Below are positions 10,177 through 44,315 of a stretch of 64,000 nucleotides of DNA, piece after piece (position 1 is the stretch's first letter; each line of letters starts with the position of its first letter). Where the stretch lies: NCBI GenBank assembly GCA_963797855.1, contig CAWCQX010000003.1, positions 10,642 through 74,641 of the forward strand, given 5' to 3'. The translations under genes were made by a program, and so were the position numbers. This DNA comes from an uncultured Chloroflexia bacterium. GTDB taxonomy: Bacteria > Chloroflexota > Limnocylindria > QHBO01. The notes under the pieces were generated by a model. That model saw nothing but the letters and a program-made list of their open reading frames with translations, ran no database searches and was not told where the DNA came from.

Positions 10177-12307
10177 ATGCTCGGACCGATGCTCACGTGG
10201 GCGCTGCCCGCCTTGTTCTCTGCGCTGGTCGCCGGGGGCGCCGCGCTGCCGCCTCCGGGCCCGCTCGCCGTCGTCCACGTGCCCGACGAGCCGGGGGCGA
10301 TCGTCCTGCCCGATGGCGCGCCCACGCTCCAGGCGGTGGCCGCCGACCTCGACGCGGATGGCGCGCCGGAGGTCGTGCGCCTCGTGGCCGGAGACAACGG
10401 AACGGTCTGGATCGAGGCCTGGGTGCAAGGCGGCGAGGGCTGGGTGCTGATGGCGGCTCCGGCGCTGGCCGTGCCGGGACCAGCCGGGCAGGGCGAGGCC
10501 GCCTACGCTCGACGCCCGGCGCGACTGCTCGTCCGGCAGATCGGCGGGCGAGATCGGGTCACGCTCGTGCGCCAGCCGTTGTTCTCCGGGCCGGAGGATG
10601 AGCGCGAGTGCTGCCTCCTCATCGATGACCTCGTCGTCGATCGCAATACGCTCCGCCTCGAGACCGTCGCCGATCCGTCCGATCCCGTCGCCGACGCGGT
10701 GCACGTCATCGATCTCGACGGCGACGGGACCGACGAGCTGCTCGCCTCGTACTTCCTCGCCCCGCTCAACGATGCCAGCAGCCTGACCGAGGCGCGGGTC
10801 TTCCGCTGGGCCGGCGACCACTTCGCGTTGCTGACGACCGGCCGGCTGCCCGTCGGCTCGGGCAGCTCCCCCTTCGTCCTCGGCGACAGCGATGGCGTTC
10901 CGGGCGACGAAGCGGCCTTCATCAGCAGCTCCGCTCTCGACGTGCTGTTCCGGATCCGCCTCGATCACGACACGCTGATCACCGAGGACTCCGGCCTCAT
11001 CGTCGACGACGCGCTGGCGGTGCCGCTGAGCGCCACGAGCCGCGGACTCGCCGTGCTCGCCCCGAGGTTCGGCCTCGCCGTCCTCTCGTGGCCACCTGGC
11101 GGTCAACCCAGCGACCCGATTGCCGCGCAGCCGATCCACAGCGCGCGACTCCTCGGCGTCGTCGACATCGGCGGCGCCCCACGGCTGCTCGTGCACCGCA
11201 CCGATCCGGACGAGCTCGAGATTCGCGCCCTGCCCGACCTGACTCCGACTCTTCCGCGCGGGCCGATCGCCCCGAGCCAATCGGCCGCCACCCTCGGCCG
11301 CGGACCGCTCTTCCCGTATGTCGGTCCGCTGCCCGGAGGCGGACCCCACGGCGCGTTCTCGGCAATCGTCGCCGGCAGCCTCATCCCGGCGCAGGTCCTC
11401 GACGACCCGGCTGCCCCGATCGGTGCGCTGGCGGCCGCCCGGCCGATCGGCCTCGTCGGTCGTGACCGCGCGTGGCTGGCGATCCAGCAGGGTGCCATCG
11501 GCCTGCCTCCGCTCGACCCAACGGGTGGGCGCCTCGACCCGCCCGCCATCCGAGCCGGCGTCGGCCGTGGCGATCGTCCCGATCGACGTGGCGACGAGAC
11601 CGGAGGGAAACGGTGGTGCCTACGATCCCGCGATCCAGGGCGGCGTCGCGCTGGCCGACGGCGTGATCGGTGTCGACCGGGACGGCCTCGTGGCCGATGT
11701 CGTCGCGCCGCCCGGCTCGCGCGTCTACCTGCCGGGCCGAGACGAGCCCGAGAGACCCGAGGTGCTCGTGGTCGGCGATGACGGCGCGCTCGACGTCAGG
11801 ATCGAGGTGCCCGCCGGCGTCACGGCCGACGCGGACGGGGCGGCGACGATGACCGTCGTCACCCCAGCCGGCCACGCCTATACCAGCTCGTGGGACCTGC
11901 GGCTGGTGGACGGGCCCCCGGACATCCGCGCCACGGCCGAGACGACGCTCGGCTCGTCACGAGTGATCGTCGCGGGCCGCGCACCCCCGTACGCGGAGGT
12001 CGAGGTCGCCGGGAAGGTCGTGGCCGTCGACGAGCAGGGTCGGTTCTCGACGAGCGTCGACCTGCCTCCGTGGCCGACCGCGGTCACGGTCAGCGCCCGG
12101 GACCCGATCGGGCACGAGGCGAGCCTCATCGTCAGCGGCATCGGGATCCTCGACTACCGAGGGCTTCCCTGGCTGCCGATCGCGCTCGTCCTCCTTGGTG
12201 GCGTCGCCGTCGCGCTGATCCTGCGTGTCCCGAAGCCACGCTCGGCGCCGCGCTCGATCGGGGACGACGCGGTCCTCGAGGAGATCGATCCGGCCGACCC
12301 GCCCTAG
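10177..12307 (+). pseudogene. Secreted, C-terminally anchored FG-GAP/VCBS-like repeat protein with Ig-like domain; frame broken at ~11550-11575
   Basis: Signal-like N-terminus MLGPMLTWALPALFSALVAGGAA and Ca-binding-like DLDADGAPE and DLDGDGTDE loops. The second frame (ORF 11318-12307) supplies an Ig-like segment (VIVAGRAPPYAEVEVAGKVVAVDEQGRFSTSV) and the TM anchor WLPIALVLLGGVAVALIL. Confidence 0.55.
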
Positions 12308-15266
12308 CCGCCGCGTCGACGCCGCGCCAGGCGCTCGGCCAGCGTCTCGCCGGGATCCGCCGGCGGTTCGACGGCGGGGGCCGGATCGGCGCGCGGGGCC
12401 GGCGTCGGTCGCGGCCTGGATGGCCGGACGCGGGGCCGGCTTCGGCGGCGTGGCCGCTGCCGCGGTCGCCGGCCGTGCATCCGGCACCGGCTCGGGGGCG
12501 GGCGGTCGCTCCGCGCGCTCGGTGCGGCGGTCGCTGCGAGCCTTCGCCGCGCGCAGCTCGGCGAGCCCGGGCACGGCCTCCGGCTCGGGCCGCCCGAGGC
12601 CGACACGGCGACCCACCCAGCCCCGCGCTCGCCGGAGATCGGCTCGGGTGAGCGCCACGCGGCGGACGCCGACGTCGAGCGGGACGAGGACGATCGCCAG
12701 CAGCAGGAGCCACGGCCAGATCGGCGTCGGGAAGGCCCCGGCCGTGATGTCATGCCGCCAGACCTCCGCCCCCGGCTCATCGGCCTCGAGTGGCAGGCGG
12801 CGTCCGTTCCCGGCATCGGCGTAGGCGGCGAGCGCATCGGTGTCGATGCCGAGACGCCGGAACTCGTCGGCGGTCGGGGAGACGATGCCGAGCGTGCGGC
12901 TTGCCGAATCGGTCCCCTCCGGGCTCTCCAGCGTCTGTGCCACGCGCACGAGGTAGGCGCCGGGATCCTCGGCGAGGACGGTGCCGGCATAGCGACCCGG
13001 GCCGACCTGCTCGAGGACCGCCTCCGTCGGCTCGAGGTCGGGCGAGATGAGGCGCATGACCGTGCGGTAGAAGTTGCGCGGGCCGCCCTCGTCGTCGAAC
13101 GAGGTCACCTCGACGTTCAGCTCGCCTCGATCGCCGGGGCTGAAGCGCACGTCGATGCCCTCGGCGTCCTGCGGGGGAAGCGTCCACGCCACGAGCTGCG
13201 CGGTCAGGGTCCCGAACTCGGGCGTCCCGATCCAGGGCGTCGCCCACTGCTGGCGCGCATCGCTCGTCCACGCGACCGCGCGTCCGAGGCCGTACTGCCA
13301 CTGCGCGAGGAGCGGGTCCTCGCGGCCGGTCAGCAGCGAGACCGTCGCGCTGCCCTTGGCCGTCGTGGCGTTGTAGCCGAGGAGCTGCGGCAGCCGGCCG
13401 GCATCGAGCCCGTCGAGGACCTCGGAGCTCGCCGATGGGATCGGCTGGAACGTCTCCTCGACGATCTGCTCGCCGGCGGTGCGGATCGTCTCGCGCAGGA
13501 AGATGTCCGGGATCGTCGTCGCGTCCGCCGCGTCGTAGTAGCGACCACCCGACTCCTCGGCCAGCTGGCGGAGAACCCGAGCCGACCCGCCGCCCGTGCC
13601 GATCGTCGAGAGCGTGATCCCGGCCGCCCGCATGTCGTCCAGCAGCGCGTCGTAGGCGCCGGATGACGACCAGCCGTCGGTGATGAGGACGATGTGCCGA
13701 AGGGTGGCCGGGTTGTTGACGAGGTCGTCGTAGGCCGCCTTCAGGCCGGCGTAGATGTTCGTGTTGCCGTCCGCACGGAAGCCGAGCCCGTTGCCGATGG
13801 CGCCGAAGTCGATCGGCGCGGTTCGGACCGCCCAATGGGCATTGCCGTCGAAGGCGACGACGCCGAGCTGGTCGGTCGGCGCGAGCGCCTCGGCCGCACG
13901 AAGGATCGCCTCCTTGGCGATGTCGACCTTCTCGAAGCCTCGCTGTCCCGATGGGTTGGCCGAGTCCCGGTTGTCGCCGGTGCAGTGGCAGTCGGCCATG
14001 CTCCCGGACTTGTCCACGACCGCCACCATCGCCACGTCCGGGGAGCGCTCACGGTCGCGGACCGTCATGTACACCGGCAGCGCCTCCTCGAGCGGCGTGT
14101 CGAGGTAGCCGCCGGCGCCGTAGCTCTCGCGCCCGCCGAGCATGACCAGGCCCTCGCCCGAGATCGCGAACGTAGGACTGGATCGCGGCCATCGTCGAGG
14201 TTCCGAGGGCGTCGGCGGGCACGTTGTCGAGGACGACGCTGTCGTAGCTGGCCAGGCCCGTGAGCGACGACGGGACGCCGTCCGACGGGACGACCGTCAC
14301 CTCCAGCTCGCCGTCCTCGAGGGACGCGACGAGGTCGGCGGCGCGCTCGGCATCGTCGGTGGCGACGAGGACCTGCGGTGGGCCGGTGACGAGCACGTAG
14401 GCATCGGCGGCGTTGTTCTCGGCGAACCGATCGGTCTCCGGCTCGATGACCGCCCGGAAGACGTGGAAGCCGGGTTCGTCGGCGGTGACGCTGAACGGGA
14501 TCGCGGTGACGCCCGGCTCGAGGTCGAGCTCGCGGGTGGCCACGGTCGCGCCATCGGCCAGCAGGCGAAGGGTGGCTCCGGTCGTGATCGTCGACCGCAG
14601 CCGGACGGTGAGATCGATCGTCTCGCCGACCCGCGCGCCGGGTGGCGCGTCGAGCGCGTCGACCAGCACCTCGGCGGCCGACTCGTCGGCGGGCGTGACG
14701 GCGTCGAGCCGGATGCCCCGGGCGGCCGCGGCGGCGATCGCGTCCTCGGCCTCGCCGGAGGTGTCGTTCCCGTCGGAGAGCAGCACGATCCGCTGCTGCG
14801 TGCCGGCTGGGAAGATCGCGGCCGCCAGGCGCACCGCCGCCCCGACGTCGGTCGCACCGGCCACCGGGGCCGACGCGGGTTCGGACAGCTCGTCGAGCTC
14901 CGACGGCAGGCGATCGACCAGCGCGTTGGCCCCGAAGACGACGACGCCGGCGGTGTCGCCCTCGGGCATGTCGCGAATCGCCGCCCGTGCCCAGTCGACG
15001 AGGTCCTCGCGGGTCGCGTCGAGCATCGATGCCGATGCGTCGAGCAGGAAGACGACGCTCAGCCGATCCGACGGGAGCGCGAGGCGCATCCCCGCCAGCG
15101 AGAGGACCAGGCAGGCCGCGAGCGCGAGGCGAATGACGAGCGAGGCGATCCGGCGTCCGCGCGGCAGGGTCCGAGACGCCGCCAGCCAGCCGACGAGCAC
15201 GATCGCCCCGACCGGCACGGCCAGCCACAGCCAGATCGGGTCGGCGAAGTTCAGCGGCAGGGTCAT
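12304..15266 (-). pseudogene. BatA-like membrane protein with two VWA domains; frame broken at ~14155 and ~12380-12480
   Basis: N-terminal double-TM segment MTLPLNFADPIWLWLAVPVGAIVLVGW. VWA MIDAS motifs LLDASASM and VVDKSGSM. C-terminal TM IWPWLLLLAIVLVPLDV. Pieces are ORFs 14049-15515, 11957-14143 and 12304-12990. ATG overlaps the upstream stop (ATGA, 15263-15266). Confidence 0.75.
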
Positions 15267-17217
15267 CGCGCCCGCCCGCCGAGCGGCTGCGGCCGGCGTC
15301 CGAACGCCCGCGCCAGGGTCCGACGCGTCGGGCGGTGGTAGAGGATCCACTCGACCGCGAGCAGCGCGAGCGCGGCGAGGGCGAGCGGCCACCACCACTC
15401 CGCGCGAGCCGGCTGGCCCGGGGCCGTCGTCGTCGGCCGGCACGCGGCCCATGTCGACGATGCGCTGTGGATCGCCGGGCGCGACGTCGGACTCGTCGGT
15501 GCTGAACAGGTTCACCGCGGTCCGTCCGAGGACCTGGTTCCCGATCGCCGGCGTCGTCGCTGACGGCGCGCACCTCGCGGACGCCCACGGCGTCGGCGCC
15601 GGCCAGGGTGAGCTGTCCGCCGACGACCGGCACCTCGACCGCGGTGCCCGCCCCGTCGGCGCCGGTGGTCACGACGCTGACGCGCTCGATGCCTGGATCG
15701 ACGGCTGCGGTCACCGACGTGCCCAGCGGCATCGACGATGGCAGGATGCCCTCCGCCACCGGCAGGAGGTGGTCGACGAGGTTGCTCATCAGCAGCGGGA
15801 AGGCGACCTGCAGCGGCAGATCGGACTCGCCGAGATCGAAGCCGATGAGCCCGAGCTGCCGCCCGTCCCGCTCGCCGACCGCCACCAGCGGACGACCGGC
15901 TCCGGTGTCGACGACCGATCGCACTCCCTCGGCGAGGGCGACCTCACGCGCACGACCGATGTGGACGGTCGTCAGGTCGACGAATCGCAGGATCGGCTCG
16001 TCCGGATCGGTGCGATCGATGAGCGGACCCTCGATCCTGCCCTCGACCGTCCCGAACTCGCCGTCCGAGGGCGGGTCGATGTACAGCGCGGCACCGGGCG
16101 GGGGCTCGTCGGGGACGAGGCCGTCGAAGACGAAGAGCCCGTAGGGGGTCCCGGCGTCCTCGGCCTCGGCGAGCGCGTCCGCATAGCCTTCGTCGCCGAC
16201 GGCGTAGAGCTCGAGGCGGGGGAGGAGGGCCATCGCGTTCTCGAGGTACGCGTTGCCCTCGCCGACGAGGAGGGCGCGCGTGCGGCCCTGGGCCGGCACG
16301 ATCGCGAACGCCCGATCGTCCGTCGCGAGCGCATCGGAACCGGCGAGTCGAGCCTCGATCGTCGCCGCGCTCGGCGGAACCGTGCTGACCAGCGCCTCCG
16401 AACGCTGGCCGGGCGGAATCGTCAGCTCGCGCGCGTCGACGAGCGCGCCATCGGCGTAGATCTCGAGCCGTCGCGTCGCCTCGACGGTCGACGGGTTGGC
16501 GACGGCCACGAAGACGTCCAGCTGCGCGCCGCCCGATCGGCGCAGGGCCGACAGCGCGGCGACCGACTGGTTCGCATCGGTCTCGCCGACGCGCTCGACG
16601 AGCACGGGCGCCCCGACGCCCACCTCCGGCAGCTCGTCGTCGGACGCGTCGCTGACGACGACGATCGTCGAGTCGGAGTCTCGCGCCGCGAGCGCCGACG
16701 CGAGCGCGAACGCATCGGTCAGGTCGCCCGGGAGCTGGGTGGCCGTGATCCCGTCGATCGCCTCGAGCGCGGCCTCGCGGTCATCGGTCTCGCTGACGAG
16801 GACGTTGGCGGTGTCGGCCGCCGCGATGACCGTCACGCGCCCGCCCTCCGGCAGCCGGCCGACGACGTCCGCGGCTCGCTCGCGCGCCAGCGCCATCCGA
16901 TCCTCGCCGTCGGTACGGGTCGCCATCGACGCGCTGGTGTCGACGATCAGGACGACGTTCGCGGCGAGGTCCGACGTCGTCGCGCTGAACGGGCGCGCCG
17001 CGGCGAGCACGATGAGCGTCGCGATGAGCAGCTGCACGAGCAGCAGCCAGCTGAATCGCAGCCGCTGCCACGGCGCGTTGGCCTCGACGTCGCGGATGAG
17101 CTGCTGCCACAGGAACGTCGAGCCGACGGGGTAGTCGCGCCGGCGCAGCCGCAGCATGTAGAACGCCACGATCACCGGCAGGCTCACGAGGCCGATGAGC
17201 GCGAGCGGCAGGATCAT
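15263..17217 (-). pseudogene. BatA-like VWA-domain membrane protein; frame broken at ~15561 and ~15406
   Basis: Aerotolerance-type N-terminus MILPLALIGLVSLPVIVAFYMLRLRRRDYPVGSTFLWQQL and VWA MIDAS motif IVDTSASM. The C-terminus is recovered in two other frames (VNLFSTDESDVAPGDP, then EWWWPLALAALALLAVEWILYHRP). ATG overlaps the DUF58 stop (ATGA, 17214-17217). Confidence 0.75.
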
Positions 17218-18105
17218 TCCACGACCCTCCGACGCCGCAGGACGTCGAAGAGGAGATCGGCGAGCTCGATGTCCGCGGGGACCTGGACGTACGCCCCGCC
17301 GCGCTTGCTCACGAACGAAGAGATCTCGGCCTGCCACTCGGCGAGTCGCGTGCGGTAGCGCTCGACGAGGTCGTCGTCGCCGGAGACCTCGACGGCGTGG
17401 CCGGTCTCGTTGTCGACCAGGCGCGCGTCGGGCGGCACCTCCGGCTCGATCTCGTCCGGCGCGAGCAGGTGCAGCACGGAGAGCTGGGATCGGGTGCCGG
17501 CCAGGTCGCGCAGCGCGTCGAGGTAGCCGGGGTCCATGAGGTCGCTGATCAGGATGAGCGGGCCGCTGCCGCGCATCCGCGACGCGTAGGCGCGCGCCGC
17601 CGACGCCAGCCCCGTGAGCCGCTCGGTGCGCGGCTCGGAGAGGAATCGGAACAGCTCGAGCGCCCGCCGCTTGCCGCGGAGCGGCCGCATCCCGCTGGAG
17701 GCGCCGTCACCGAGGAACGCGACGCTGACGCGATCCATGCTCGCGAGCCCGAGGTATCCAAGCGCGGCCGCCGCCCGCCGTGGCGGCATCGAGCTTGTTC
17801 GGCTCGCCGTAGTCCATGCTCCGGCTCGCGTCGACGAGGATGTGGACGGTGACGTCCTCCTCCTCGACGAAGAGCTTCACGAAGAGGCGCTCGAGCCTCG
17901 CGTACGCGTTCCAGTCGAGCTGGCGCAGGTCGTCGCCGGCGGTGTAGTTGCGGTAGTCGGCGAACTCGACGCTCTGGCCGCGCCGCACGCTGCGCCGCTC
18001 GCCCTTCATCCGCCCGGCGGTGAGGCGGCGCGAGGCCAGCTCGAGCTGCTCGAGCCGGCGGAGGAAGGCCTCGTCGAAGAACGGTGCGCGCTCGGTGGCG
18101 GTCAT
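17214..18105 (-). pseudogene. DUF58 family protein; frame broken at ~17781 (apparent extra A)
   Basis: GQSVEFADYRNYTAGDDLRQLDWNAYARLERLFVKLFVEEED and ILVDASRSM are DUF58 signatures. The join KLDAA / RRAAAALGYLGLASMDRVSVAFLGDG links ORFs 17707-18105 and 17214-17789. Confidence 0.8.
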
Positions 18106-18121
18106 CGGTCGGGGTCGCTCA

Positions 18122-18143
18122 CGCGTATATACGTATATACGCG
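18122..18143. promoter_or_regulatory. Perfect 22-bp AT-cored palindrome in the only intergenic gap of the operon
   Basis: CGCGTATATACGTATATACGCG is exactly self-complementary. It lies between the MoxR stop (18156) and the DUF58 start (18105). The sequence is certain; the function (operator, internal promoter or RNA hairpin) is unknown. Confidence 0.4.
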
Positions 18144-18155
18144 AGGGCCGCCACG

Positions 18156-19186
<1,031 letters not shown>

Positions 19187-19190
<4 letters not shown>

Positions 19191-21039
19191 TCCGTGGGTT
19201 CCAGGCGCGAGAAGTAGTCGCGGACGAAGTCCTTCAGCGTGATCGGCACCTGCTGGCGATCGAGCGCCGTCTGCGCGTAGTCGTAGAAGAGATTGAAGAC
19301 CGATGCGTACGGCACGACGCTGTCGTTGTCGAAGCCGACCCCCGATCCGGACCCGGTCTGGTCGGTGCCGCCGTTGCCGCCCTGGCCGGCGATGAAGTCC
19401 GGATCGCCGGGCCGCCCGAAGCGGTCGAAGTCGGTGAGGATGCTGCCCTGGTCATCGGTCTGGAAGCCCTGGTTGCCGCGGGTCGGGCCGTCGAAGCTGC
19501 CGGTGCGGAGGCCGCCGCCCGGAATCCGCCGCACGTTCGTTCCGCCGCCGCCACCGAGCTGATTGCCCTGCCCGGGCTGGTTGCCGGGCTGGTTCCCGGG
19601 CTGGTTCCCCGGCTGGTTCCCGGGCTGGTTGCCGGGCTGGTTGCCCGGCTGATTGCCCGGCTGGCTCCCGGGTTGACCGGATGCGCCGGGCTGACCCGAA
19701 GCCCCGGCTGACCCGGCGACCCGGCTGTCCGGATGCTCCGGGCTGGCCCGAAGCGCCGGGCTGCCCCGAAGCGCCGGGCTGTCCGGACGCGCCTGGCTGG
19801 CCCGAAGCGCCCGGCTGGCCGGACGCACTCGGCTGTCCGGCGGTCGGCTGCCCGGCACGAGCGACCTGGCGCGCGCCCTCCTGCAGGGCCGACTGCGCCT
19901 GAGCGACGTCTCGCTGGAGCTGGCGGTCGCGCTCGGACTGGCGGAAGGCGTCGGCGGCGCGCTCCAGGGCCTCCTGCGCCGCCCGCTGATCCTCCTCGGA
20001 GCCGGACCGCGCGGCCGCGTCGAGCGCGTCGGCCGCCTCGGCCAGCGCCTGGGCGACCTGCGGCTGAGACGCGGCCCCGGCCTGGGCCGCCTGGCGCAGC
20101 TCGGCGGCGCGCGCGAGCGCATCCTCGCGGTCGAGCTCGGGAGTCCGATCGGCGAGCTCGTCGAGGTCGTTGGCGGCCTGCTCCGGGTCGCCCTCGTCGT
20201 TGGCCTCCTCGTCGCCGGTCGCGGCCCGGGACGTCGAGCGCGCCAGCTGGGTGAGGCCGGCGTCTCGCTCGGCGGCCTGGGGATCGGTCATCCGGGACAG
20301 CTCCTCCTGCACCGATCCGATGCGCGCCAGCGTCGCCTCGCGGTCGGCGCCCTGCTCGCGCAGCTGCCGGGCGAGCTCGCGGAGCTGGCGCTCGAGCTCC
20401 TCGCGCCGCGGGTCCGGGTTCTCGACGTTCTTCTCGCCGACCTCGTCGGCGACGTCCTCGACGCGCTCGGCGACCCGTTCCGCCGCCTCGCGTGCGGCGC
20501 GGCGCTGGGCGACCACGTCGTCCTGCGGGTTCGGCCACGCGACGAGGAGCAGGGTCATCGCCAGTCCGATGCCGACGACCGCGAGCGGCCGCCGGGCCAG
20601 CCGCGGCCGGAACGCCCGACGCAGATCGACCGCGTTCAGGCGGGCGCGAGCGTCGTCGAGCTGACGGACCTCGAGCGGATCATCGGCCTCGTGGCCGGCC
20701 AACTCGAGGGCCGTTCCCAGCCGCTGGCGAAGGGCGAGCTCCTCGTCCGCCCGTCTGGCGGCCTCGACGAGCGACGGGCGCGAGCGAATGACCATGACCG
20801 CCCATGCCAGCGCCCCGACCCCGACGACGCCGATCTGGACGTACGGCGCGAACTCGAATGGAAAGCGCGCGGGACAGCAGCTGGACGAGCGCGACGCAGA
20901 GGACGGTCGCGGCGAGCACCAGGATCCCGGCGCGGACGGCGCGACGCCACCACAGCCGGCGACGGAGGCTGCGCAGCCGGCCGATGGCATCGGGGCCGAG
21001 GCGACGCGCGACCGCCTCGCTGACGGTTCGGTCGCTCAC
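19187..21039 (-). pseudogene. Two-TM, coiled-coil, Gly/Gln/Pro/Asn repeat protein of unknown function; frame broken at ~20865 and twice at ~19700-19725
   Basis: GTG 21039 overlaps the permease stop (GTGA). N-terminus VSDRTVSEAVARRLG... with TM segments AGILVLAATVLCVALVQLL and YVQIGVVGVGALAWAVMVI. A long acidic/Arg-rich helical region follows, then GQPGAS and NQPG repeats and a C-terminus VVPYASVFNLFYDYAQTALDRQQVPITLKDFVRDYFSRLEPTE. Confidence 0.55.
19562..19852 (-). repeat. In-gene tandem repeats: ~9 x 12 bp (NQPG) followed by ~8 x 18 bp (GQPGAS)
   Basis: Plus-strand units GGCTGGTT(G/C)CC(G/C)G at ~19566-19675, and GGCTG(N)CC(C/G)GA(A/C)GCGCC-type units at ~19676-19852, read directly from the sequence. 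Confidence 0.9.
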
Positions 21040-22184
21040 CGCTCGACCTCGCCCAGGTCCTCGACCGTGGCCTGCCCGGGATCGTCGTCCACTCCCACCG
21101 CGATCGGTCCGGCAGCGACGGCGGGCCGGCGACGTCGGAATGCCCAGCGCATGCCCGCGGGCACGACGAGCCGGGTCGAGAGGAAGGTCAGCAGCGCGGC
21201 GAGGGCGACGAACGTGATCGCGATGCGCGGCCACCAGTAGCCCGACCCGCTCTCGACCGCCTGATTGACCGGATTGCCGAACTGGTCCACCGGCTGGCAC
21301 ACGTCGCCGACGCAGTCGACCCCGCCGCCGAAGTTCGGCGTCTCACCGCGAAGCTGAGCCAGCAGGCCGTTGATGCCGCCGAAGCCGCCCGGCTCGGTGT
21401 TGCCGACGACGTCGAGCATCGCGATGCCCGGGTTGACGTACAGCAGCTGCTCCGGCGCACGCCGGGGTGGACCGATGCCGAAGCCATTCTCCTGGTTGAT
21501 CAGGAGGGTCCAGAAGCCGAAGAGCATGACCGTCCCGACCGTCAGCGCCAGCATCGTGATGTAGCTCAGGACGGTCGCGGCCTGCGTGCGCTTGAGGAGC
21601 GCGGAGAAGAAGAGGCCGATGGCGCCCAGCGCGACCGCCGTCGCGAGCAGGACCAGCTGCTGGCGCACGATGTCCTCGACCGACGCGCCGCCGTACATCA
21701 GCACGATCGCCGTGATCGGCACGGCCGCCACGATCATCAGCACGACGAAGGCGAGCGCGGCCAGGAGCTTGCCGAGGACGATCGCTCCGGGGCGCATCGG
21801 CGTGCTCACGAGCAGGTCGAGCGTCTGCTTCTCGCGCTCGAGGCTGATCTGCCCGGCCGTGAAGCCGGGTGCGATGAAGCAGATGAGGATGAGCTGGAAG
21901 ATCGAGAGAAGCGTGAAGATCGTCTGGCCCACGATCGCCGAGGTATTGGCCTGGTTCACGAAGCCGCCGCCGCCGAAGTTGTCGCGGGCAGTCGGCGCGA
22001 CGACCAGGTACGAGCCGTAGGTGATCAGCGCCAGCAGGCCCAGATAGATCGTCAGCACGATGAACGCCCGACGCCCGCGCATCCGCGAGCGCAGCTCCTT
22101 GACCATGATCGTGCCGACGCCGGCGAGGAACTCGCGGAACGCGGACCGGCGCGCCGGACGGATCGCCTCTGCCGTCGCCGTCAT
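21036..22184 (-). CDS. ABC-2 type transporter permease
   Basis: 383 aa from ATG 22184, which overlaps the ATPase stop (ATGA). Six or more TM segments. LSIFQLILICFIAPGFTAGQISLEREKQTLDLLVSTPM is typical of ABC-2/NosY-GldF-like permeases. The upstream part of ORF 21036-23177 is out-of-frame read-through. Confidence 0.8.
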   Translation of the reverse strand: MTATAEAIRPARRSAFREFLAGVGTIMVKELRSRMRGRRAFIVLTIYLGLLALITYGSYLVVAPTARDNFGGGGFVNQANTSAIVGQTIFTLLSIFQLILICFIAPGFTAGQISLEREKQTLDLLVSTPMRPGAIVLGKLLAALAFVVLMIVAAVPITAIVLMYGGASVEDIVRQQLVLLATAVALGAIGLFFSALLKRTQAATVLSYITMLALTVGTVMLFGFWTLLINQENGFGIGPPRRAPEQLLYVNPGIAMLDVVGNTEPGGFGGINGLLAQLRGETPNFGGGVDCVGDVCQPVDQFGNPVNQAVESGSGYWWPRIAITFVALAALLTFLSTRLVVPAGMRWAFRRRRPAVAAGPIAVGVDDDPGQATVEDLGEVER

Positions 22185-23158
22185 GCCGCCGCCTCGCTCC
22201 CGTCCTGCCCGGTGACCTTGAGGAAGATCTCCTCGAGATCGCTGGTGGCCTGCGCGAAGCCGACCACGCGGTGACCGGCCTCGATCATCGATCGCAGCAG
22301 CACGGCCTGGTCGTCGCCGGTGCCGTCGAACGCGACCTCCAGCCGCGTCGACCCGTCCGGGCTCTGCGCCGGCAGGACGTCGCCCACACGCGGATCGGTT
22401 CCGAGCCAGTCGGCCGCCGCCTGGATTGCCTCCGGGTCGCCGAGGATGTCGATGCGCAGGAGCGCGGTCGCGCGGAGGGAGCGCTCGATCTCGCTGATGC
22501 TTCCCGAGCGCAGGACGCGGCCGTGGTCGACGATCGCGACGCCGGTGCACATCTCGCCGAGCTCGGGGAGGATGTGGCTGCTGACGAGGATCGTCTTGCC
22601 CATCGCCCGCAGCTCGCGGAGGATCTCGCGCATCTCGACTCGCGCCCGCGGATCGAGGCCCGATGCCGGCTCGTCGAGGATCAGCAGCGTCGGGTCGTGG
22701 ACGAGCGTGTGGGCGAGGCACAGGCGCTGGCGCATGCCTCGCGACAGCGTCTCGACGTACGCCTGGCGCTTGTCGGCCAGCCCGACGATCTCGAGCAGCT
22801 CGCCGACCATCGTCGGTCGGCGGTTGGCGGCGATGCCATAGCAGCGAGCGAAGAAGTCGAGGTACTCCCAGACGCGCAGGTCGTCGTAGACGCCGTAGAA
22901 GTCGGGCATGTAGCCGATGCGGCGCCGGACCTCGATCGGGTCGGCGGCCACCGGGATCCCGGTGATGTACGCCTCGCCCGAGGACGGAGCGAGCAGGGTG
23001 GCGAGGATCTTCATCGTCGTCGTCTTGCCGGCCCCGTTCGGGCCGACCAGCCCGAAGATCTCGCCATGGCCGATGACGAGGTCGAGGCCGGCGACGGCGA
23101 GCTGGTCGTCGTAGCGCTTCACGAGGCCACGGGTCTCGACGACGGGAACGTCGATCAT
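22181..23158 (-). CDS. ABC transporter ATP-binding protein (ABC-2 exporter type)
   Basis: From ATG 23158 (MIDVPVVETRGLVKRY): Walker A GPNGAGKTT, signature LSRGMRQRLCLAHT, Walker B LILDEPASGLD. ATG overlaps the upstream stop (ATGA, 23155-23158). Confidence 0.9.
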   Translation of the reverse strand: MIDVPVVETRGLVKRYDDQLAVAGLDLVIGHGEIFGLVGPNGAGKTTTMKILATLLAPSSGEAYITGIPVAADPIEVRRRIGYMPDFYGVYDDLRVWEYLDFFARCYGIAANRRPTMVGELLEIVGLADKRQAYVETLSRGMRQRLCLAHTLVHDPTLLILDEPASGLDPRARVEMREILRELRAMGKTILVSSHILPELGEMCTGVAIVDHGRVLRSGSISEIERSLRATALLRIDILGDPEAIQAAADWLGTDPRVGDVLPAQSPDGSTRLEVAFDGTGDDQAVLLRSMIEAGHRVVGFAQATSDLEEIFLKVTGQDGSEAAA

Positions 23159-25565
23159 CGGTCCAGCACCCCGGCAACCTGTGCGCTCGGGTAGACGCCG
23201 CCCTGGCCGAAGTCCGGATTGTTCGGGACGCCCGTCACGCGGACGACGATACGCCCGGTTGAGCTCAGCACGGTGGATGGATCGTCGATCACGAACTCGC
23301 TCTGCTGGCCCAGGTCGCCGAGCTCGGTCCAGGCTCCGGTCGTCGGGTGCTGGACCTCGACCGTGAATCCCTGCGGCCAGAAGCCGCCGAACCCGCCCGG
23401 GTCGCTGAAGACGAAGCTCGGATCCGGCCCGACGATGATCTCGACTTCGGTCGGGACGATCCCGGCCGCCTCGAGCGGCAGGGCGATGCTCCACGTCGCC
23501 GAGCCCTCGCCGAGGGTCATCATCCCGCCGCCGGCCGGGTTCGCATCGCCCTCGGTCTCGATCACGTCGACGCCCATCTGGTGCGGGAGGATCGTGACCT
23601 GCCCGGTGGCCAGCGCGGGCCGGACGCTGAGCACCTCCACCGACGCGCGATAGACCTGCGCCTGCAGGTTGTCGATCGCCACCGGCATCGGTCCGGCCTC
23701 GTCGCGCCAGCCGATGACGTACGGCCCGCGCCGGCCGACGTCCACGCTCACCGGCCCGAACGAGGCGTAGCCGACGAGCGAGTCGATCACCTGGCGGCGC
23801 AGCGTGACGAGTCGCTGCTGCTCATCGCCGGCCTCGAAGCCGCCGAATCCATAGACCTGGTCGGCCGCCGACGAGCCGTTGAAGTTCGTGCCCGGCAGCT
23901 GGAACTCGGCGCTGGCGCCCGGCGCGAGGTCGCCGATCCGCTCGCCGCCGACCATGCTGATGTACGCGACGTCCTCGATCGCGGCGTCGGAGGTGTTCGT
24001 GACGGTCCCGACGACCTTCCCGTCGTTCGTGCTCCACTCGACGGACAGGGCGGCCTCGTGCTCGACGATGCCGGTGGCGCGGACGGCCTCGAAGCCGAAG
24101 ACCGGGATCGTCAGGCCACGGAGGTGGGCGGGCTCGCCCTGGTCGATCTCCACGTCGCTCGCCTGGCGCGGCAGGCCGTCCTGGCGTTGCAGCTGGCCGA
24201 TCAGCGCATCGGCCTCGACGGTCAGGTCGTAGGTGCTTCGATCGGGCGAGACGATCCCGGAGAACGTGTCGACGGTCGCGGAGCCGCCCTCGGATGTCGT
24301 GCGGATGACGGAGATCTCGTTCACGACGACGTCACCGCCCTTCATCGTCCGGCCGATCCCATACGAGCAGGCCGTGAAGAGGACGACGAGGATCGGAGCC
24401 GTGACCCAGGCCAGCTCGCGGCGGTCGATTCGTCGCAGGACGAAGTAGCTGATCGGGCCGATGAGCAGGATGTACGCGACGATCACCACGAGGAGCAGCT
24501 CGGCCGGCGGCACGTCGAGCGCGGGGAGCGTGCTCAAGGCGCCGCTCATCGCGTTCTCCATCTCCTGCCGAACCGGGAATTGACCGCCGAAGAACTGCTC
24601 GAGGGCGGCGTTCGTCGGGAGCAGCCGCGACCAGAGGCGAGTCGCGCCCGGCCAGCCGCGGAACTCGTCCGTCGCCAGGTCGGTCCCGACGAAGATGACG
24701 CGACCGGCGCCGATCGGGCGCATCGAGACGAGGACCTCGCCATCATCGGCCGCGATCAGCTCCGCCGCGCCGTCGCGCAGGTCGCCGGTCGAGACGGTTG
24801 CCGTCGCAACGGGAGCCTCCGCCTCGCCGGAGAATGCCGCGAACGCGTCCTGCGAGACGCCGTCGACGGCGGCGAGGTTCTCGAGCGGCAGGAGGTCGGC
24901 GAAGCCCGCGGTTCGAGCCTGCCAGTCGCCCCCGCCGATCACGACCAGCTGCCCGCCTTCGCCGACCCAGCGCTCGACGGCGCGTCGCTGCGCCTCGTTC
25001 AGCTCGCTGCTGTCACCGGCCCACACGATCGCGGCGAGGCCGCCGAGCGGCTCGGGTCGTTCGGGGATGTCGCTCGGGCCGAGGGCGATCGGCTCGGGTC
25101 CGGAGAGCTCGCCATCGCCGATCAGCTGCGGCCGGAGGGCTCCCGTCCCGTCGCCGACGACCACGACCTGGTCGTTGGACTGCTCGAGGACTCGGACGTC
25201 GACCTTCGCGTTGACCGCGCCGTTCGGCTCGTCGTACGTCACGGTCGACCTCGCGCTGGAAGGCCTCCGGCTGGACGTAGAGCATCACGACCTTGCGGGC
25301 GCCCGCGGGCATCTCGACGAAGCGGCGCACCGTCCCGATCGAGGTCTCGGCGACGAGGTAGCCGCTCGTCGGCTCGCCCTCGTTCGCGAGCGACACCGAG
25401 AGCGCGAGCCAGCCGCCGACCTCGTACCGGCCGCGCGACGAGCGCGCGCGCCTCGATCTGCACCGCGCTGGCCGCGTGAGCGGGGAGGGGAGCGAGCAGC
25501 ACGACCATCGCAGCGCCGAGCACGGCGGCGCGAATGGCACGGGTCAGGAGGGTCCGGCTCGTCAT
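23155..25565 (-). pseudogene. Large exported/membrane protein, possible ABC auxiliary (GldG-like) component; frame broken at ~25440 and ~25246
   Basis: Signal peptide MTSRTLLTRAIRAAVLGAAMVVLLAPLPAHAAS (ATG 25565, GAGAGGA upstream). Segment AAIVWAGDSSELNEAQRRAVERWVGEGGQLVVIGGGDW. Central TM pair LLLVVIVAYILLIGPISYFVL / VTAPILVVLFTACSYGIG. The GldG-like assignment is a weak recollection. Confidence 0.5.
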
Positions 25566-25698
25566 CGTCCTCTCGGGTTGGGTGAATGGCCCGGGCCCCG
25601 GGTCCCCCGGTAGACGCCCCCGGACAGCGTCGAGTTGCACGCTGGCGCTCGGGTGCGCGGCGAGTGTAGGGAAGCCGGACACCCGATGCTAGAGTGCA

Positions 25699-27610
25699 AT
25701 GCTGGTCATGGAATCCCGGTCCGATCGTCCGCATGAGCTCGAGCGCCAGCTCGAGCGACGGATGCGCGCCCAGGAGCGCCAGCTCGCCTGGGTTCGGCTG
25801 GGGATGGTGGCGCTGGCGGCCGCCGTCCTGCTCATCGTCGCGCCGACGATGCCGGGCATCGAGATCCTTCTCGCCGTCCTCGGCGTGGTCGCCGCCTGGA
25901 GCGTCCTCGTCTTCTGGCTCCTGCGCCGCTTCCCGGCGCGCGAGGTCGGGATCATCAGCACGGTCGTCGAGATGGCCGCGGTCACGATCGCGGTCTACGT
26001 CGCGGTGGACGCGCCCGACCTCTATCTCCTGTACGGGCTCGTCATCCTCGGTGCCGCGCTGCGGTTCGGCCTCGGCGCCGCGGTGTGGTCCTCGATCGTC
26101 ATGACCGGCATGTACCTCGCGGTCGTGCTCCCGGGCGACCGGCTGGACGAGGCGAGCCTCGACGCGCTGCCCGTTCGGATCGCCTACCTCATCGGCTTCG
26201 GCGTCGTGGCCGGCCTCTTCAGCCGGATCGTCATCGGCCGCGCGGAGGAGAACGCGAAGCTCCAGGCACAGCTCGTCGAGGAGGAGCGCGAGCGCGAGCA
26301 GACGCGGGAGCGCGAGCTGCTCAGCCGGCTCGGCCGCGACTTCGGCGCCTCGCTCGAGCGGGCGGCGACGCTCGAGGCGATCGCCGTCGGTTCGGCACCG
26401 GTGCTCGGCGGCGCGACCCTCGTCTTCACGATCGACGACGTCGAGCAGTGCCTCGAGCCGGCGGCGGCCGCCGGTCCCGACGGCGAGCTGGTCGAGGCGT
26501 GGCGCGCGTTCGCCGATGGACGCCACCCGCGGCTCGGCGACGGGCTGATCGGCGCCGTCGGCGCGACCGCCGCGACGCGCCAGGCCACCGCCACGGATAT
26601 CCCGACCGGCGATCCCGACGGGATGCGCGCGCTCGGCGTCGACTGGCTCGTGGCGGTGCCGATCCTGGCCGGCGGCCGCCTCCAGGGCGTGCTCGCCACC
26701 GCCGGCCGAAGCGATCGGCCGCTCGAGGAGCGGATCCCGCGCATGGCCGAGGCGGTCGCCGAGCGGGCCGGGCCCGGCGCTCCAGAACGCGCAGCTGTGG
26801 TCCGACCTCCAGGAGCGGATGGCGCGCGAGCAGGCGGCGACGCGGATCAAGGACGACTTCCTCTCGATCGTCAGCCACGAGCTGCGGACGCCGCTGACCA
26901 GCATCCAGGGCTACTCCCAGCTGCTCGAGGGTCGCCTGCGCAGCGAGCACGACGGCGAGAGCAAGGAGATGGCGCACCTCCGCGTCATCCGCTCGCAGGT
27001 CGGGCGCATGCGCCGGCTCGTCGACGACCTGCTCGACGTGAGCCGCATCGACCGGCGCGGCGGCGTGAGCATCGAGCCGATCGACTTCGACCTTGCGGAC
27101 GAGATCCACGAGGCGGTCGGCCGCGTCCGCCGCGAGCACACCGACCGGACGATCGCGATCAGCGCGCCGGACAGCCTGCCGATCCACGCCGATCGCGACC
27201 GGCTGGGCCAGGTGATCAGCAACCTGCTCGAGAACGCGGTGAAGTACTCGCCGGACGGCGGGACGATCGATGTCGTCGCCGAGCGCCGCGGGGGCGAGGT
27301 CGAGGTCCGCGTCTCCGACACCGGCGTCGGGATTCCCGCCGAGCACCGAGAGAACGTGTTCGAGCGCTTCTACCAGGCCGATGGGGATGCCGGGCGGCGC
27401 CGATTCGGCGGCCTCGGCCTCGGCCTCTACATCAGCCGGGCGATCATCGACGCGCACAGCGGGCGGATCTGGGCGGCCGAGAACGTCGAGGCCGGGTCGG
27501 GCTCGGTCTTCGGCTTCCGGATCCCGCGCGTGGCGATGCCGCTCGCGAGATCGGAGATCGCCCCGACCGGCGAGGCGCCGGCATTCGTCCTCCGCCGCAG
27601 AGAGGAGTGA
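25699..27610 (+). pseudogene. Membrane sensor histidine kinase with GAF-like domain; frame broken at ~26777 (apparent extra G)
   Basis: N-terminal multi-TM region and GAF-like middle. After the frame shift: ALQNAQLWSDLQERM, H-box FLSIVSHELRTPLTSI, N-box NLLENAVKYSP, G1 DTGVGIP, G2 GGLGLGLYISR. The start may be ATG 25699 or 25708. Confidence 0.85.
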
Positions 27611-27611
27611 G

Positions 27612-28699
27612 GTGAGCGTCTCGAGGACGCGCCGGCGGCTGGACGAGCTGGCCGCCCGACACGGGCTGCACCTCGTCGGCGTCACGAGCGCCGAGCCGAT
27701 GCCTGCCGACCGCGATCGGATGGAGGAGAGCGTCGCCGCCGGCCGGATGGGTCGGATGGGCTGGATGGGCGGCTCGCGGCCGGCGCAGGCAACCGATCCT
27801 CGCCGGCATGACCCGGAGGCGCGGTCGGTCATCACCGTTGCCGCGCCGTACGTCGGGGCCGAGCGCGCCGCGTGGGACGACCGGCCCGGGGCACTCCACG
27901 AGGCGCTCGCGCCGGTCCTCGCCGGTGCGCCGGCGCGAGCCCGCCGGGCGGATCGCCCGCTACGCGATCGGCAGCGACTACCACGGCGCCCTCCGCGGGC
28001 GCCTCGAAGGGCCTTGCCGCCGACCTGCGGGCGTCGGGGATCGCGGCGGGCGAAACCGCCTACGTCGACGACCGGCCGCTGGCCGAGCGCGCGCTCGCCG
28101 CGCGCGGCGGTCTCGGCTGGATCGGCAAGAACACGAACCTGCTCACCCACGAGCGCGCCGGCTCCTGGGTCTTCCTCGGCGCGATCCTCACCTCCGCCGA
28201 GCTGCCGGCCGACGCACCGGTGCGCACGTCATGCGGCTCGTGCACGCGGTGCCTCACCGGCTGCCCGACGGGTGCGCTCGTCGCGCCGCGGACGATCGAC
28301 GCCCGGCGCTGCATCAGCTATCTCACGATCGAGCATCCCGGGGTCCTCGACGCGTGGGAGGCGGGAGCGATCGGCGACTGGATCTTCGGCTGCGACGTGT
28401 GCCAGGAGGTCTGCCCGGTCAATGCCGACGCCGACGACTCCGGCCCGCTCCGCGTCCCGCTGCTGCCGCTCATCGAGTGGCTCCTCCCGATCGGCACGCG
28501 CGCCTTCGAGCGCGCGTTCGCCGCGACGGCGCTCACGCGGGCGGGCCGCCATCGCCTCCTGCGGAATGCGATCGCGGCGCTCGGGAATGCCGGTCCGCTG
28601 ACCGATGACGGGCGTGCGCTCCTGGAGCGGGCTGCGCGCGACCGGCGGGAAGAAGTCCGGGCACAGGCCGCGGGCGTCCTGGCGGCCGCGACGGCCTGA
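27612..28699 (+). pseudogene. queG: Epoxyqueuosine reductase; frame broken at ~27937 and ~28010
   Basis: GRIARYAIGSDYH, GLGWIGKNTNLLT, ferredoxin-type clusters CGSCTRCLTGCP and CDVCQEVCP, and a HEAT-like C-terminus. The pieces lie in three frames (ORFs 27270-28601, 27808-28608, 27872-28699). Confidence 0.8.
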
Positions 28700-43012: not shown

Positions 43013-43089
43013 GTCCCCGTAGCTCAGTGGATCAGAGCAGCCGCCTTCTAAGCGGCCGGTCGCAGGTTCGAATCCTGCCGGGGACGCCA
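43013..43089 (+). tRNA. tRNA-Arg (anticodon UCU), CCA encoded
   Basis: GTCCCCG acceptor stem pairs with CGGGGAC. D-arm TAGCTCAGTGGATCAGAGC. Anticodon stem GCCGC/GCGGC with loop CTTCTAA. T-arm GGTTCGAATCC. Ends in GCCA. Confidence 0.9.
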
Positions 43090-43100
43090 CCTCCCCGCGC

Positions 43101-44315
43101 TCAGCCTCCGAGCCTCTCGATCGCATCGGCGGCCTCGTCGAGACCGCGCTCCTTCTCGAGCTCGCTCGCCAGGGCGCCAGCACGCTGGCGCATGGCCGGA
43201 TCGGCGGCGCTGGCGAGGGCCGCCGAGGCCAGGCGCTCGGCCTGCAGACCGCGCACGGGCTGGGGCTCCGGCGCGACTCCGAGCCGCCGAAGCCGATCGG
43301 CCCAGTAGGGCTGGTCACCGACATGCGGAATCACGAGCGACGGAACGCCGGCCGCGACGACGGCGTGGGTCGTTCCCGAGCCGCCGTGATGCACGACGAG
43401 CGCCGCGCGCGGGAAGAGCGCGCGGTGGTCGACCGCACCGATGCGGATCAGGCCGGGCGAGGTGACGCCCGCGGCGATCGATCCCTGGACGACGACCCGA
43501 CGACCGCTCTCGAGGATCGCTCGCACGGCGCCGTCAATCGCCGCCTCCGACGCGCCGGCCATCGAGCCGAAGCCGATGACGATCGGGGCGGCACCATCGG
43601 CAAGAAAGGCCTCCAGCTCCGATGGCAGCGGAGACACGGGACGGTCGTCGAGCCAGGCGCCCGTGACGAGCGTGCCCGCCGGCAGGTCGGGAGGCACCCG
43701 GATGATCGCCGGAGAGCACGCGAGGAGATGGAGCCGCGGCGAGCGAGCGCGGAAGAGCGGCAGGCCACGCTGCGCACTCCCGGCGCGCGCCAGGACGCCG
43801 TCGACGGGGCGCCCGACCCGCGCGAGGATCCGGTCGAGCATCCACCACGCGGGCCGGTTCAGCGGACCGAGCGGGGGCAGGCCCGGTGGAGGCGCGCTGC
43901 GCGTCGGCAGCAGGACCGGGTCGAACACCGCCGTGGCGAACGCCAGCCCGGCGTCGAGGACCGCGGCGTGCGCGAGGACGTGAATGCCATGGACGACGAC
44001 GACGTCGTGACCCGGCAGCAGCGTCCTCAGCCGCCGATAGTGGTCCTCGCCGTCCGCGATGTGGAAGTCGCGAAGGATGGCGACCTGCTGGAGCGGTGGC
44101 CGCCCGGCGACGTCCGCCGCGACGGCGGCGATCCGACCGGCGTCTGCATGCGGGCCGGCGACCTCGACCCGCACGCCCGCCTCCGAGAGCGCGGCGCGAT
44201 GGACCGGCCAGCTGATCGCCGTCACCTCGTGGCCGCGGGCGACGAGCCGCCGGGCGAGCAGCACGAACGGCGCAACGTCCCCGGTGGTGCCGACCGTCGC
44301 CAGCGCGATCCGCAT
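43101..44315 (-). CDS. GT1-family (MGT/UGT-type) glycosyltransferase
   Basis: 404-aa intact ORF. MRIALATVGTTGDVAPFVLLARRL and the C-terminal donor-binding motif VVHHGGSGTTHAVVAAGVPSLVIPHVGDQPYWA. Confidence 0.8.
   Translation of the reverse strand: MRIALATVGTTGDVAPFVLLARRLVARGHEVTAISWPVHRAALSEAGVRVEVAGPHADAGRIAAVAADVAGRPPLQQVAILRDFHIADGEDHYRRLRTLLPGHDVVVVHGIHVLAHAAVLDAGLAFATAVFDPVLLPTRSAPPPGLPPLGPLNRPAWWMLDRILARVGRPVDGVLARAGSAQRGLPLFRARSPRLHLLACSPAIIRVPPDLPAGTLVTGAWLDDRPVSPLPSELEAFLADGAAPIVIGFGSMAGASEAAIDGAVRAILESGRRVVVQGSIAAGVTSPGLIRIGAVDHRALFPRAALVVHHGGSGTTHAVVAAGVPSLVIPHVGDQPYWADRLRRLGVAPEPQPVRGLQAERLASAALASAADPAMRQRAGALASELEKERGLDEAADAIERLGG

Follow-up and report, generated by a model that had tools for sequence, protein, structure and literature searches.

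Do an ABC-2 exporter and a Bat-like MoxR-DUF58-VWA module that are encoded side by side act together at the cell envelope? This question is raised by a locus of an uncultured Chloroflexia bacterium, whose genome falls within Candidatus Limnocylindria (Chloroflexota), located at 12304-25565 on the minus strand of a 64,000-nt stretch of DNA (contig CAWCQX010000003.1 of assembly GCA_963797855.1, positions 10,642 to 74,641; hereafter the window). Few bacterial gene neighbourhoods with no known molecular role are as widespread as MoxR-DUF58-VWA clusters. The locus adds three conserved partners to such a cluster: an exporter of the ABC-2 type, an accessory protein that resembles GldG and has two ectodomains, and an unclassified stalk protein. 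Their presence focuses the hypotheses on a structure of the envelope outside the cytoplasm. Our results showed that the locus is an eight-gene operon joining a small ABC exporter to the MoxR/DUF58/VWA module, and that the two halves do not assort independently where the first gene, G1, is present. Judging from the predicted proteins, it is reasonably probable that this vertically conserved Chloroflexota operon works as one functional envelope unit, a membrane-anchored cell-surface complex.

Gene order and linkage of the two halves

Raw lists of open reading frames were uninformative because the G+C content of the window was 70-74%, and coding was found by profiles of GC by codon position (GC3) with a frame-tracking Viterbi pass, followed by translation of the tracked frames. 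Minus-strand coding was unbroken from about 25565 to 12304, between a divergent plus-strand gene starting at 25699 and a convergent plus-strand gene ending at 12307, and yielded eight proteins:

23155-25565, minus strand: G1, about 801 residues, signal peptide, DUF7408
22181-23158, minus strand: G2, 325 residues, intact ABC ATPase of the DrrA/ABC-2 type
21036-22184, minus strand: G3, 382 residues, intact ABC-2 permease (ABC2_membrane_2)
19187-21039, minus strand: G4, about 615 residues, without a known family
18156-19190, minus strand: G5, 344 residues, intact MoxR AAA+ ATPase of the AAA_3 type
17214-18105, minus strand: G6, about 296 residues, DUF58 (VWA-like)
15263-17217, minus strand: G7, about 650 residues, BatA N-terminal domain and VWA_2
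12304-15266, minus strand: G8, about 985 residues, two VWA domains and GATase1_like

The eight co-directional genes and the domains named for them in the original prediction were borne out by the GC3 frames and by the Pfam and NCBIfam matches. The six 4-nt start/stop overlaps that it had listed were all in place, as ATGA at 23155, 22181, 17214 and 15263 and as GTGA at 21036 and 19187. The sole junction without an overlap was G5/G6, with a 50-nt spacer at 18106-18155. The start of G5 was ambiguous, being either the GTG at 19190 or an ATG at 19175 behind a Shine-Dalgarno-like GAGGGA motif (339 residues); in a close relative, locus L001, the upstream GTG was out of frame. The stop of G8 at 12304, which overlapped the end of the convergent gene by 4 nt, was backed by a C-terminal motif common to the orthologue in L003, and the motif GAGAGGA was located 3 nt ahead of the ATG of G1.

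Related loci (numbered with the prefix L) were collected by G1 with one genome per GTDB species (80 loci), by an Anaerolineae-type G1 alignment in JGI metagenomes (80 loci) and by exact-protein look-ups (ten loci). G1-G8 were located in each by tblastn, and the counts refer to loci with enough sequence downstream of G1. The order G1, ABC ATPase, ABC-2 permease, G4, MoxR, DUF58, BatA/VWA and double VWA was almost invariant in 167 related loci. The downstream genes were found in order and on the same strand in 128/128 loci for G2, 112/113 for G3, 81/85 for G4, 70/74 for G5, 66/70 for G6, 61/64 for G7 and 57/61 for G8, and every Limnocylindria locus of sufficient length carried G1 to G8 in order. 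The linkage held at G1 identities of 25-33% to the window and in full-set loci with a GC content of 0.48-0.75, and the eight-gene order was seen too in independent gene calls with precomputed Pfam labels (L002, L003, L086, L087, L170). A 4-nt overlap was possible in 73/141 loci at G1/G2, 96/128 at G2/G3, 52/64 at G3/G4, 30/79 at G4/G5, 2/75 at G5/G6, 28/67 at G6/G7 and 33/47 at G7/G8, counts that are biased toward small gaps because the start codon nearest the stop was picked. Overlaps were thus kept across loci, the module boundary included, in agreement with the tightly packed single unit that had been proposed. Chance adjacency was ruled out, since the identical order and overlaps recurred in well over 100 independent loci.

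The named carriers were Limnocylindria, Anaerolineae/Anaerolineales, Ardenticatenales or "Chloroflexota". The 80 genomes found in GTDB with a 14-sequence G1 subset were all Limnocylindria-type, and in a profile search with a diverse G1 alignment Limnocylindria dominated, with only three or four distant proteins. The G1 family comprised 743 clusters at 50% identity with E ≤ 1e-30, and no match was obtained by tblastn of an Anaerolineae G1 against 72,556 plasmids. Limnocylindria-type loci with 47-64% G1 identity and unchanged order were also present in L006, L014, L030, L041, L047, L050 and L052, which were deposited as Steroidobacteraceae, Angelobacter, Dormiibacterota, Methylomirabilota or Zixiibacteriota; these off-phylum contigs are probably mis-binned or mislabelled.

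Among the exceptions, L159 contained G1-G3 only and L143 contained G1-G4 only, and L142 looked like a deletion or a chimera. In L169 (7105-14025), G4, DUF58, BatA/VWA and double VWA were found, whereas G1, the ABC genes and a neighbouring MoxR were all missing. The cluster of a Chloroflexota metagenome-assembled genome (MAG; L004, 11854-19818) was expanded with the core order unchanged, the extras inserted between G4 and G7 being proteins of 230, 204, 67, 296 and 888 residues and a second ABC ATPase. Because the linkage was near-invariant in the loci surveyed, independent assortment of the two halves is refuted wherever G1 is present, and the coupling of the ABC-2 genes to the MoxR-VWA genes claimed in the original prediction withstood the comparison of synteny across deep divergence.

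The same loci bear on whether two independent systems, an ABC-2 exporter (G1-G3, perhaps G4) and a Bat-like module (G5-G8), share one operon and are co-regulated for the envelope. Each half occurs alone elsewhere, as GldAFG-type ABC-2 sets and as Bat or MoxR-proper (MRP) clusters in Bacteroides, spirochaetes and mycobacteria (PMC5700661, PMC12067865), and the rare split loci L159 (G1-G3), L143 (G1-G4) and L169 (G4 with G6-G8) point the same way. The sole junction with a consistent spacer, G5/G6, falls inside the cluster, although not at the boundary of the modules. Against such a division, the linkage was kept down to 25-30% identity, over a wide GC range and in 70/74 testable loci, 4-nt overlaps cross the supposed boundary (G3/G4 in 52/64 and G4/G5 in 30/79), and G4 travels with either half. 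Two separate systems are therefore considered rather unlikely.

Frame breaks in the assembled sequence

Ten frame breaks were found in five of the eight genes:

25435 and 25245, minus strand: G1, 1-nt insertions
20866, about 19718 and about 19701, minus strand: G4, the last two 17 nt apart within the GQPGAS repeats
17781, minus strand: G6
15552 and 15419, minus strand: G7
14157 and about 12400, minus strand: G8

The breaks are real in the assembled sequence, as the original prediction had noted, but their number is ten and not about eleven. Ten breaks across five of eight genes would be expected of a pseudogenised, decaying locus in which the breaks are genuine, but the comparison with L001, whose contig aligned over 18 kb at 93% DNA identity, spoke against it. 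Relative to L001, the window contained single-base insertions at 25435, 25245, 20866, 17781, 15552, 15419 and 14157, and these seven insertions coincided exactly with jumps of the coding frame. L001 had different single-base indels of its own elsewhere (for example at 22321, 17194, 15851 and 13474), at which the frame of the window is uninterrupted. Past every break, the GC3 periodicity and the similarity at the protein level carried on unaltered, and orthologues of the operon genes were intact in L002, L003, L086 and L087. G1 was likewise intact, with about 800 residues, in orthologues of 60-96% identity that bear the name Candidatus Limnocylindria or Chloroflexota. Flanking genes in 25699-28605 were also broken relative to L001, namely the histidine kinase gene (26775) and a QueG-like gene (27627-28021). 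Since frame switches occurred throughout the window, the whole assembly appeared to be indel-prone, and many of the related loci are MAGs with "MFD" isolate labels, which we take to mark long-read assemblies. Because the flanking genes are broken too and the orthologues are intact, the breaks are, on these sequence comparisons, assembly errors and not decay; genuine pseudogenisation is very improbable, and the objection that the locus might be decayed falls away. As a practical lesson, dense frame breaks in such a MAG window should be read as assembly error and not as biology.

The encoded proteins and a putative envelope complex

The topology of G1-G8 was predicted by hydrophobicity and the positive-inside rule. 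G2 matched ABC_tran (PF00005, 96.3 bits) with the Walker A, signature and Walker B motifs all present, and G3 matched ABC2_membrane_2 (PF12679, 63.9 bits; cut-off 27.2), with six predicted transmembrane helices and a 95-residue outside loop. As an ABC_tran ATPase with a separate permease of the ABC-2 family, the two proteins correspond to a generic ABC-2 exporter. G1 matched DUF7408 (29.5 bits; cut-off 27) and, weakly, DUF4350 (PF14258, 18.7 bits; cut-off 30.4), and many of its orthologues carried precomputed PF14258 or PF24157 assignments. It consisted of a signal peptide, an N-terminal β-sandwich, an α/β DUF4350/DUF7408 (GATase1-like) domain, a transmembrane hairpin and an all-β C-terminal ectodomain, with a predicted topology of a ~320-residue ectodomain, the hairpin with a 9-residue cytoplasmic loop and a second ectodomain of ~400 residues. 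This cytoplasmic loop, LRRxDRRE[WL]AW, was the most conserved stretch of the G1 family. The AlphaFold2 model of a 93%-identical G1 orthologue (pLDDT 88, pTM 0.86) displayed the β-sandwich, the α/β domain, the hairpin and the all-β C-terminal half, and a Foldseek search of the G1 model against the PDB returned generic β-sandwich matches alone (mu-homology, macroglobulin-like; TM-score about 0.1-0.4). G1 showed a weak likeness to the GATase1-like region of G8 (hhalign E = 0.0015).

G1-G3 resembled GldG, GldA and GldF of Bacteroidota, in which an ABC ATPase, an ABC2_membrane_2 permease and a large extracytoplasmic accessory protein of GATase1-like/GIFT fold are also encoded together, and they had been labelled GldA/F/G-type on that account. 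The likeness is one of architecture alone, because none of the three proteins fell into the corresponding Gld family. G2 scored 217.6 bits with the GldA equivalog TIGR03522 (cut-off 402.6), below its score with the generic DrrA model; G3 scored 29.2 bits with the GldF equivalog TIGR03518 (cut-off 288.5); and G1 gave no match to GldG/ABC_transp_aux (PF09822, TIGR03521) at E ≤ 0.01. Thus the label held for the architecture and not for family membership, the models scoring far below their cut-offs. The architecture of G1 also differs from that of GldG, and a linkage of Gld genes to MoxR/VWA genes was not described in the literature found.

A gliding or adhesion apparatus, in which a GldAFG-like ABC system powers or supplies VWA surface adhesins as in Bacteroidota gliding, would nevertheless agree with GldA and GldF being the best non-generic NCBIfam matches of G2 and G3, and with VWA domains bearing a metal ion-dependent adhesion site (MIDAS) being classical adhesion modules. 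Among the carriers are some with the labels Anaerolineae, Anaerolineales or Ardenticatenales, groups that are largely filamentous. The G1 domain, moreover, would fall within the GldG-like DUF4350 group (PMC5898192). The Gld scores given above, 217.6 against 402.6 and 29.2 against 288.5 bits with no GldG or ABC_transp_aux match, are unfavourable to this apparatus; further gliding genes were absent from the scanned flanks, and the VWA proteins are predicted to be anchored in the cytoplasmic membrane at both ends. Described Limnocylindria, too, are small planktonic cells. Taken together, such a gliding or adhesion apparatus is improbable.

In the MoxR half, G5 matched AAA_3 (PF07726, 211.1 bits; cut-off 27) and AAA_lid_2 (PF17863, 61.5 bits), contained the Walker A motif GVPGLGKT and the Walker B motif LVLADE, and was predicted to be cytoplasmic, with no transmembrane helix. 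The AAA_3 core and AAA_lid_2, with the DUF58 gene G6 and then the VWA genes G7 and G8 downstream, place G5 in the MRP subfamily of MoxR proteins, for which adjacent DUF58 and VWA-domain partner genes are the criterion of Snider and Houry (as quoted in PMC12067865). G6 matched DUF58 (102 bits) and had no transmembrane helix, and the DxSxS MIDAS motif was present in all four VWA-type domains (G6, G7 and two in G8). G7 contained the BatA N-terminal double-transmembrane domain (PF07584, 45.8 bits; cut-off 25.9) and VWA_2 with DTSAS; its predicted topology comprised the double transmembrane segment, a basic cytoplasmic loop, a ~530-residue ectodomain, a C-terminal transmembrane anchor and a basic cytoplasmic tail. 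G8 was predicted to have an N-terminal double transmembrane segment, likewise with a basic cytoplasmic loop, 785 residues outside, a C-terminal transmembrane helix and a basic Pro/Ala-rich cytoplasmic tail. Homology between the two proteins extended over about 300 residues from the N-terminus (hhalign probability 97%), PF07584 itself not being reported for G8. In L168 (13504-18255), G7 and G8 formed one 1583-residue protein in an otherwise standard cluster, and because of this Rosetta-stone hint they are very likely physical partners.

The operon shares with Bat clusters, including Borrelia BB0170-BB0176 and the Leptospira bat genes, an MRP-type MoxR (AAA_3), DUF58 and BatA-type MIDAS VWA proteins whose VWA domain lies between the second and the C-terminal transmembrane helices; in G7, the BatA N-terminal double-transmembrane domain and the MIDAS VWA domain are combined as in BatA. 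The topology predicted for G7 and G8 agrees with the three-transmembrane layout of BB0173, a BatA-type protein whose VWA domain has been mapped experimentally to the periplasmic side (PMC5700661). No TPR (BatC/BatE) or BatD domain was found in the Pfam matches of the eight products or in the scanned flanking genes. The Bat-type label of the original prediction therefore applied to the common MoxR-DUF58-BatA core, but the locus is not a canonical Bat operon, lacking any BatC/BatD/BatE-type domain. In addition, G7 and G8 exceed their Bat counterparts two- to threefold in size, with GATase1-like domains and β-sandwiches, and the ABC-2 exporter, G1 and G4 precede the MoxR core. The carriers also differ, being Chloroflexota, which are largely without an outer membrane.

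MoxR together with vWA is also the core of ternary conflict systems, which were defined by a third core component and effector domains (Kaur et al. 2020; PMC7159879), and a weak Pfam match to bpMoxR (35 bits) was obtained. However, the Pfam matches of the eight products contained no VMAP, iSTAND, FtsH-type or β-propeller third component and no recognisable effector domain, and PADLOC gave generic P-loop matches alone. Moreover, many of the related loci inspected had the same conserved flank (DUF1015, hydrolase), which would not be expected of a variable defence island. On these grounds, a MoxR-vWA system for conflict or phage defence is hardly credible, and the defence-system reading was rejected because third components and effector domains were absent from the eight products and PADLOC was unspecific.

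G4, which belongs to neither half by family, gave no match in Pfam and NCBIfam except for a low-complexity repeat. Among 22 G4 relatives searched against Pfam at E ≤ 1, no family recurred and DUF4175 was absent, and Foldseek found nothing in the PDB below E = 0.8 for the structure model. The protein consisted of a basic N-terminus, two transmembrane helices, a conserved cytoplasmic segment of ~69 residues and a third transmembrane helix with a PNPQ motif, followed by a ~225-residue helical-bundle ectodomain, disordered GQPGAS/NQPG repeats and a C-terminal helix pair (VPY...VRDYFSRLEP). Its N-terminus was predicted inside and ~450 residues outside. In the model, the helical bundle spanned residues 171-395 with pLDDT mostly above 85 and helices of roughly 13-48 residues, and was followed by ~160 disordered Gly/Gln/Pro-rich residues and then two short conserved helices. 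The GQPGAS and NQPG repeats described earlier are real, but the two-helix coiled-coil protein of that description gave way to three predicted transmembrane helices and an ectodomain modelled as a bundle of short helices, not one long coiled coil. Since G4 was found with either half when the halves were apart (G1-G4 with no MoxR half in L143; G4-DUF58-G7-G8 with no ABC half in L169), it is likely a bridge or stalk between them.

No account of the eight-gene arrangement was found in full-text literature searches. The nearest published idea is an archaeal complex of arCOG01314 (DUF4350, GldG-like), MoxR and vWA, predicted by Makarova et al. in 2015 to serve secretion or membrane remodelling (PMC5898192). 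There too, the genes for a COG0714 MoxR, a vWA protein and further membrane proteins with β-sandwich ectodomains are linked to that of a protein with a signal peptide and a GldG-like ectodomain of flavodoxin fold. Unlike the operon, that complex is archaeal and has no ABC-2 transporter and no BatA-type proteins, and its DUF4350 protein has a single C-terminal transmembrane helix, whereas G1 has a central hairpin and then a second 400-residue ectodomain. The suggestion that the eight genes had not been characterised as a unit has to be qualified, since the DUF4350, MoxR and vWA part had this predicted precedent, without an ABC transporter.

MoxR-VWA pairs elsewhere are chaperones that mature specific complexes (PMC3893208, PMC7159879), and the mycobacterial moxR1-DUF58-vWA operon adjoins cell-wall hydrolase genes (PMC12067865). 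In Rhizobium, mutants of the MRP-type MoxR RL3499 are affected in membrane integrity and cell morphology (PMC3893208). This MRP MoxR resembles G5 in lying in an operon with membrane proteins; unlike in the window, there is no ABC transporter and no G1. The Rhizobium leguminosarum operon RL3499-RL3502 reportedly encodes MoxR, DUF58 and two large membrane proteins, one of which combines a BatA N-terminus with a GATase1-like domain. The second protein, with 2-3 transmembrane helices and Gln/Gly-rich low complexity (TIGR02302/DUF4175), would resemble G4, the relation being unproven. G4 itself matched 0 NCBIfam families at E ≤ 0.01, in a library that should hold TIGR02302, and no DUF4175.

One envelope complex is favoured because of the conserved operon, the predicted topology and the MoxR precedents elsewhere. 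G1, G4, G7 and G8 are each predicted to place roughly 450-785 residues outside the membrane, and G2, G5 and G6 are predicted inside. The ectodomains would comprise three MIDAS-bearing VWA domains, GATase1-like domains, β-sandwiches and a stalk of helices carrying a disordered, collagen-like tether. A MoxR hexamer, with DUF58 as the MIDAS adaptor, would engage the short basic cytoplasmic loops or tails of the BatA-type proteins and of G4, and would drive the assembly or a conformational switch of the ectodomains, as MoxR-VWA pairs do for other complexes. G2/G3 with the accessory G1 would export an envelope component bound by the ectodomain scaffold or, alternatively, would pass ATP-driven movements to G1 outside the membrane, and G4 would serve as the bridge and stalk between the halves. 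The net role would be to build or maintain a structure of the surface or envelope that serves integrity, adhesion or the organisation of the wall. Confidence in any single one of these steps is much lower than in the single envelope unit as such.

Several points weigh against one envelope unit, in addition to the bias of the junction counts. An action of the cytoplasmic MoxR/DUF58 on VWA domains outside would need coupling via very short loops. The loci were retrieved by G1, and few by G4, so that the survey shows that G1 implies the MoxR half, in one direction alone. Other phyla commonly carry MoxR-DUF58-VWA clusters that lack ABC genes, the rare split loci L159, L143 and L169 imply that the halves can function apart, and the known carriers are all uncultured MAGs.

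A more specific form of the envelope unit, in which the ABC ATPase and the MoxR/DUF58 pair, as cytoplasmic motors unrelated to each other, would jointly assemble or actuate a roughly 2,500-residue multi-VWA/GATase1-like scaffold tethered by G4 as a new trans-membrane machine, is possible but tentative. If such a two-motor machine is real, it would represent a new envelope-assembly or surface-secretion system and would provide the first mechanistic handle on Bat-like MoxR-DUF58-VWA clusters; both ATPase systems acting on one complex would also be a new architecture for energising events beyond the cytoplasmic membrane. The G7-G8 fusion, the half-clusters and the expanded cluster offer natural experiments. 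Limnocylindria and Anaerolineae, to which the carriers belong, are abundant in soil and freshwater and almost unstudied experimentally.

The G5/G6 spacer and the flanks of the operon

Two noncoding features accompany the eight genes:

18122-18143, no strand assigned: perfect AT-rich 22-nt palindrome CGCGTATATACGTATATACGCG between G5 and G6
25566-25698, minus strand: upstream intergenic region shared with the divergent histidine-kinase gene, presumed promoter and 5' untranslated region

The palindrome CGCGTATATACGTATATACGCG was present as one copy in the window, with 0 expected by chance, in a genome of 72% GC. Variants of the form CGTATAT-N3-5-ATATACG were located in the same ~50-nt spacer in 11 loci (L018, L020-L023, L028, L030, L031, L040, L067 and L077), and in L020 both arms were altered. 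The palindrome could form an RNA hairpin within the operon, bind a dimeric regulator or belong to an internal promoter. In 11 relatives (L002, L012, L013, L017, L026, L035, L039, L044, L057, L061 and L078), the MoxR/DUF58 spacer contained 150-250 nt with a very stable predicted structure (minimum free energy -74 to -124 kcal/mol). The spacers of L012, L026 and L078 had the core GGCCAC.CA..GGCCGATA in common, which suggests a small repeat or an element like a miniature inverted-repeat transposable element that targets this spacer.

A promoter and terminator scan of 11800-26200 gave nothing above shuffles and no sigma-70-like site in the upstream region, and no Rfam family was located there, the only Rfam matches being two tRNAs elsewhere in the window. 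The convergent downstream gene (10177-12307, plus strand) gave weak FG-GAP-like and Glucodextran_B matches and had a frame break of its own at about 11550; in L003, the position after G8 is held by a 740-residue protein and a sortase gene instead. At 43013-43104, ARAGORN called two overlapping tRNA-Arg genes on opposite strands, of which the plus-strand one alone (43013-43086) was backed by Rfam.

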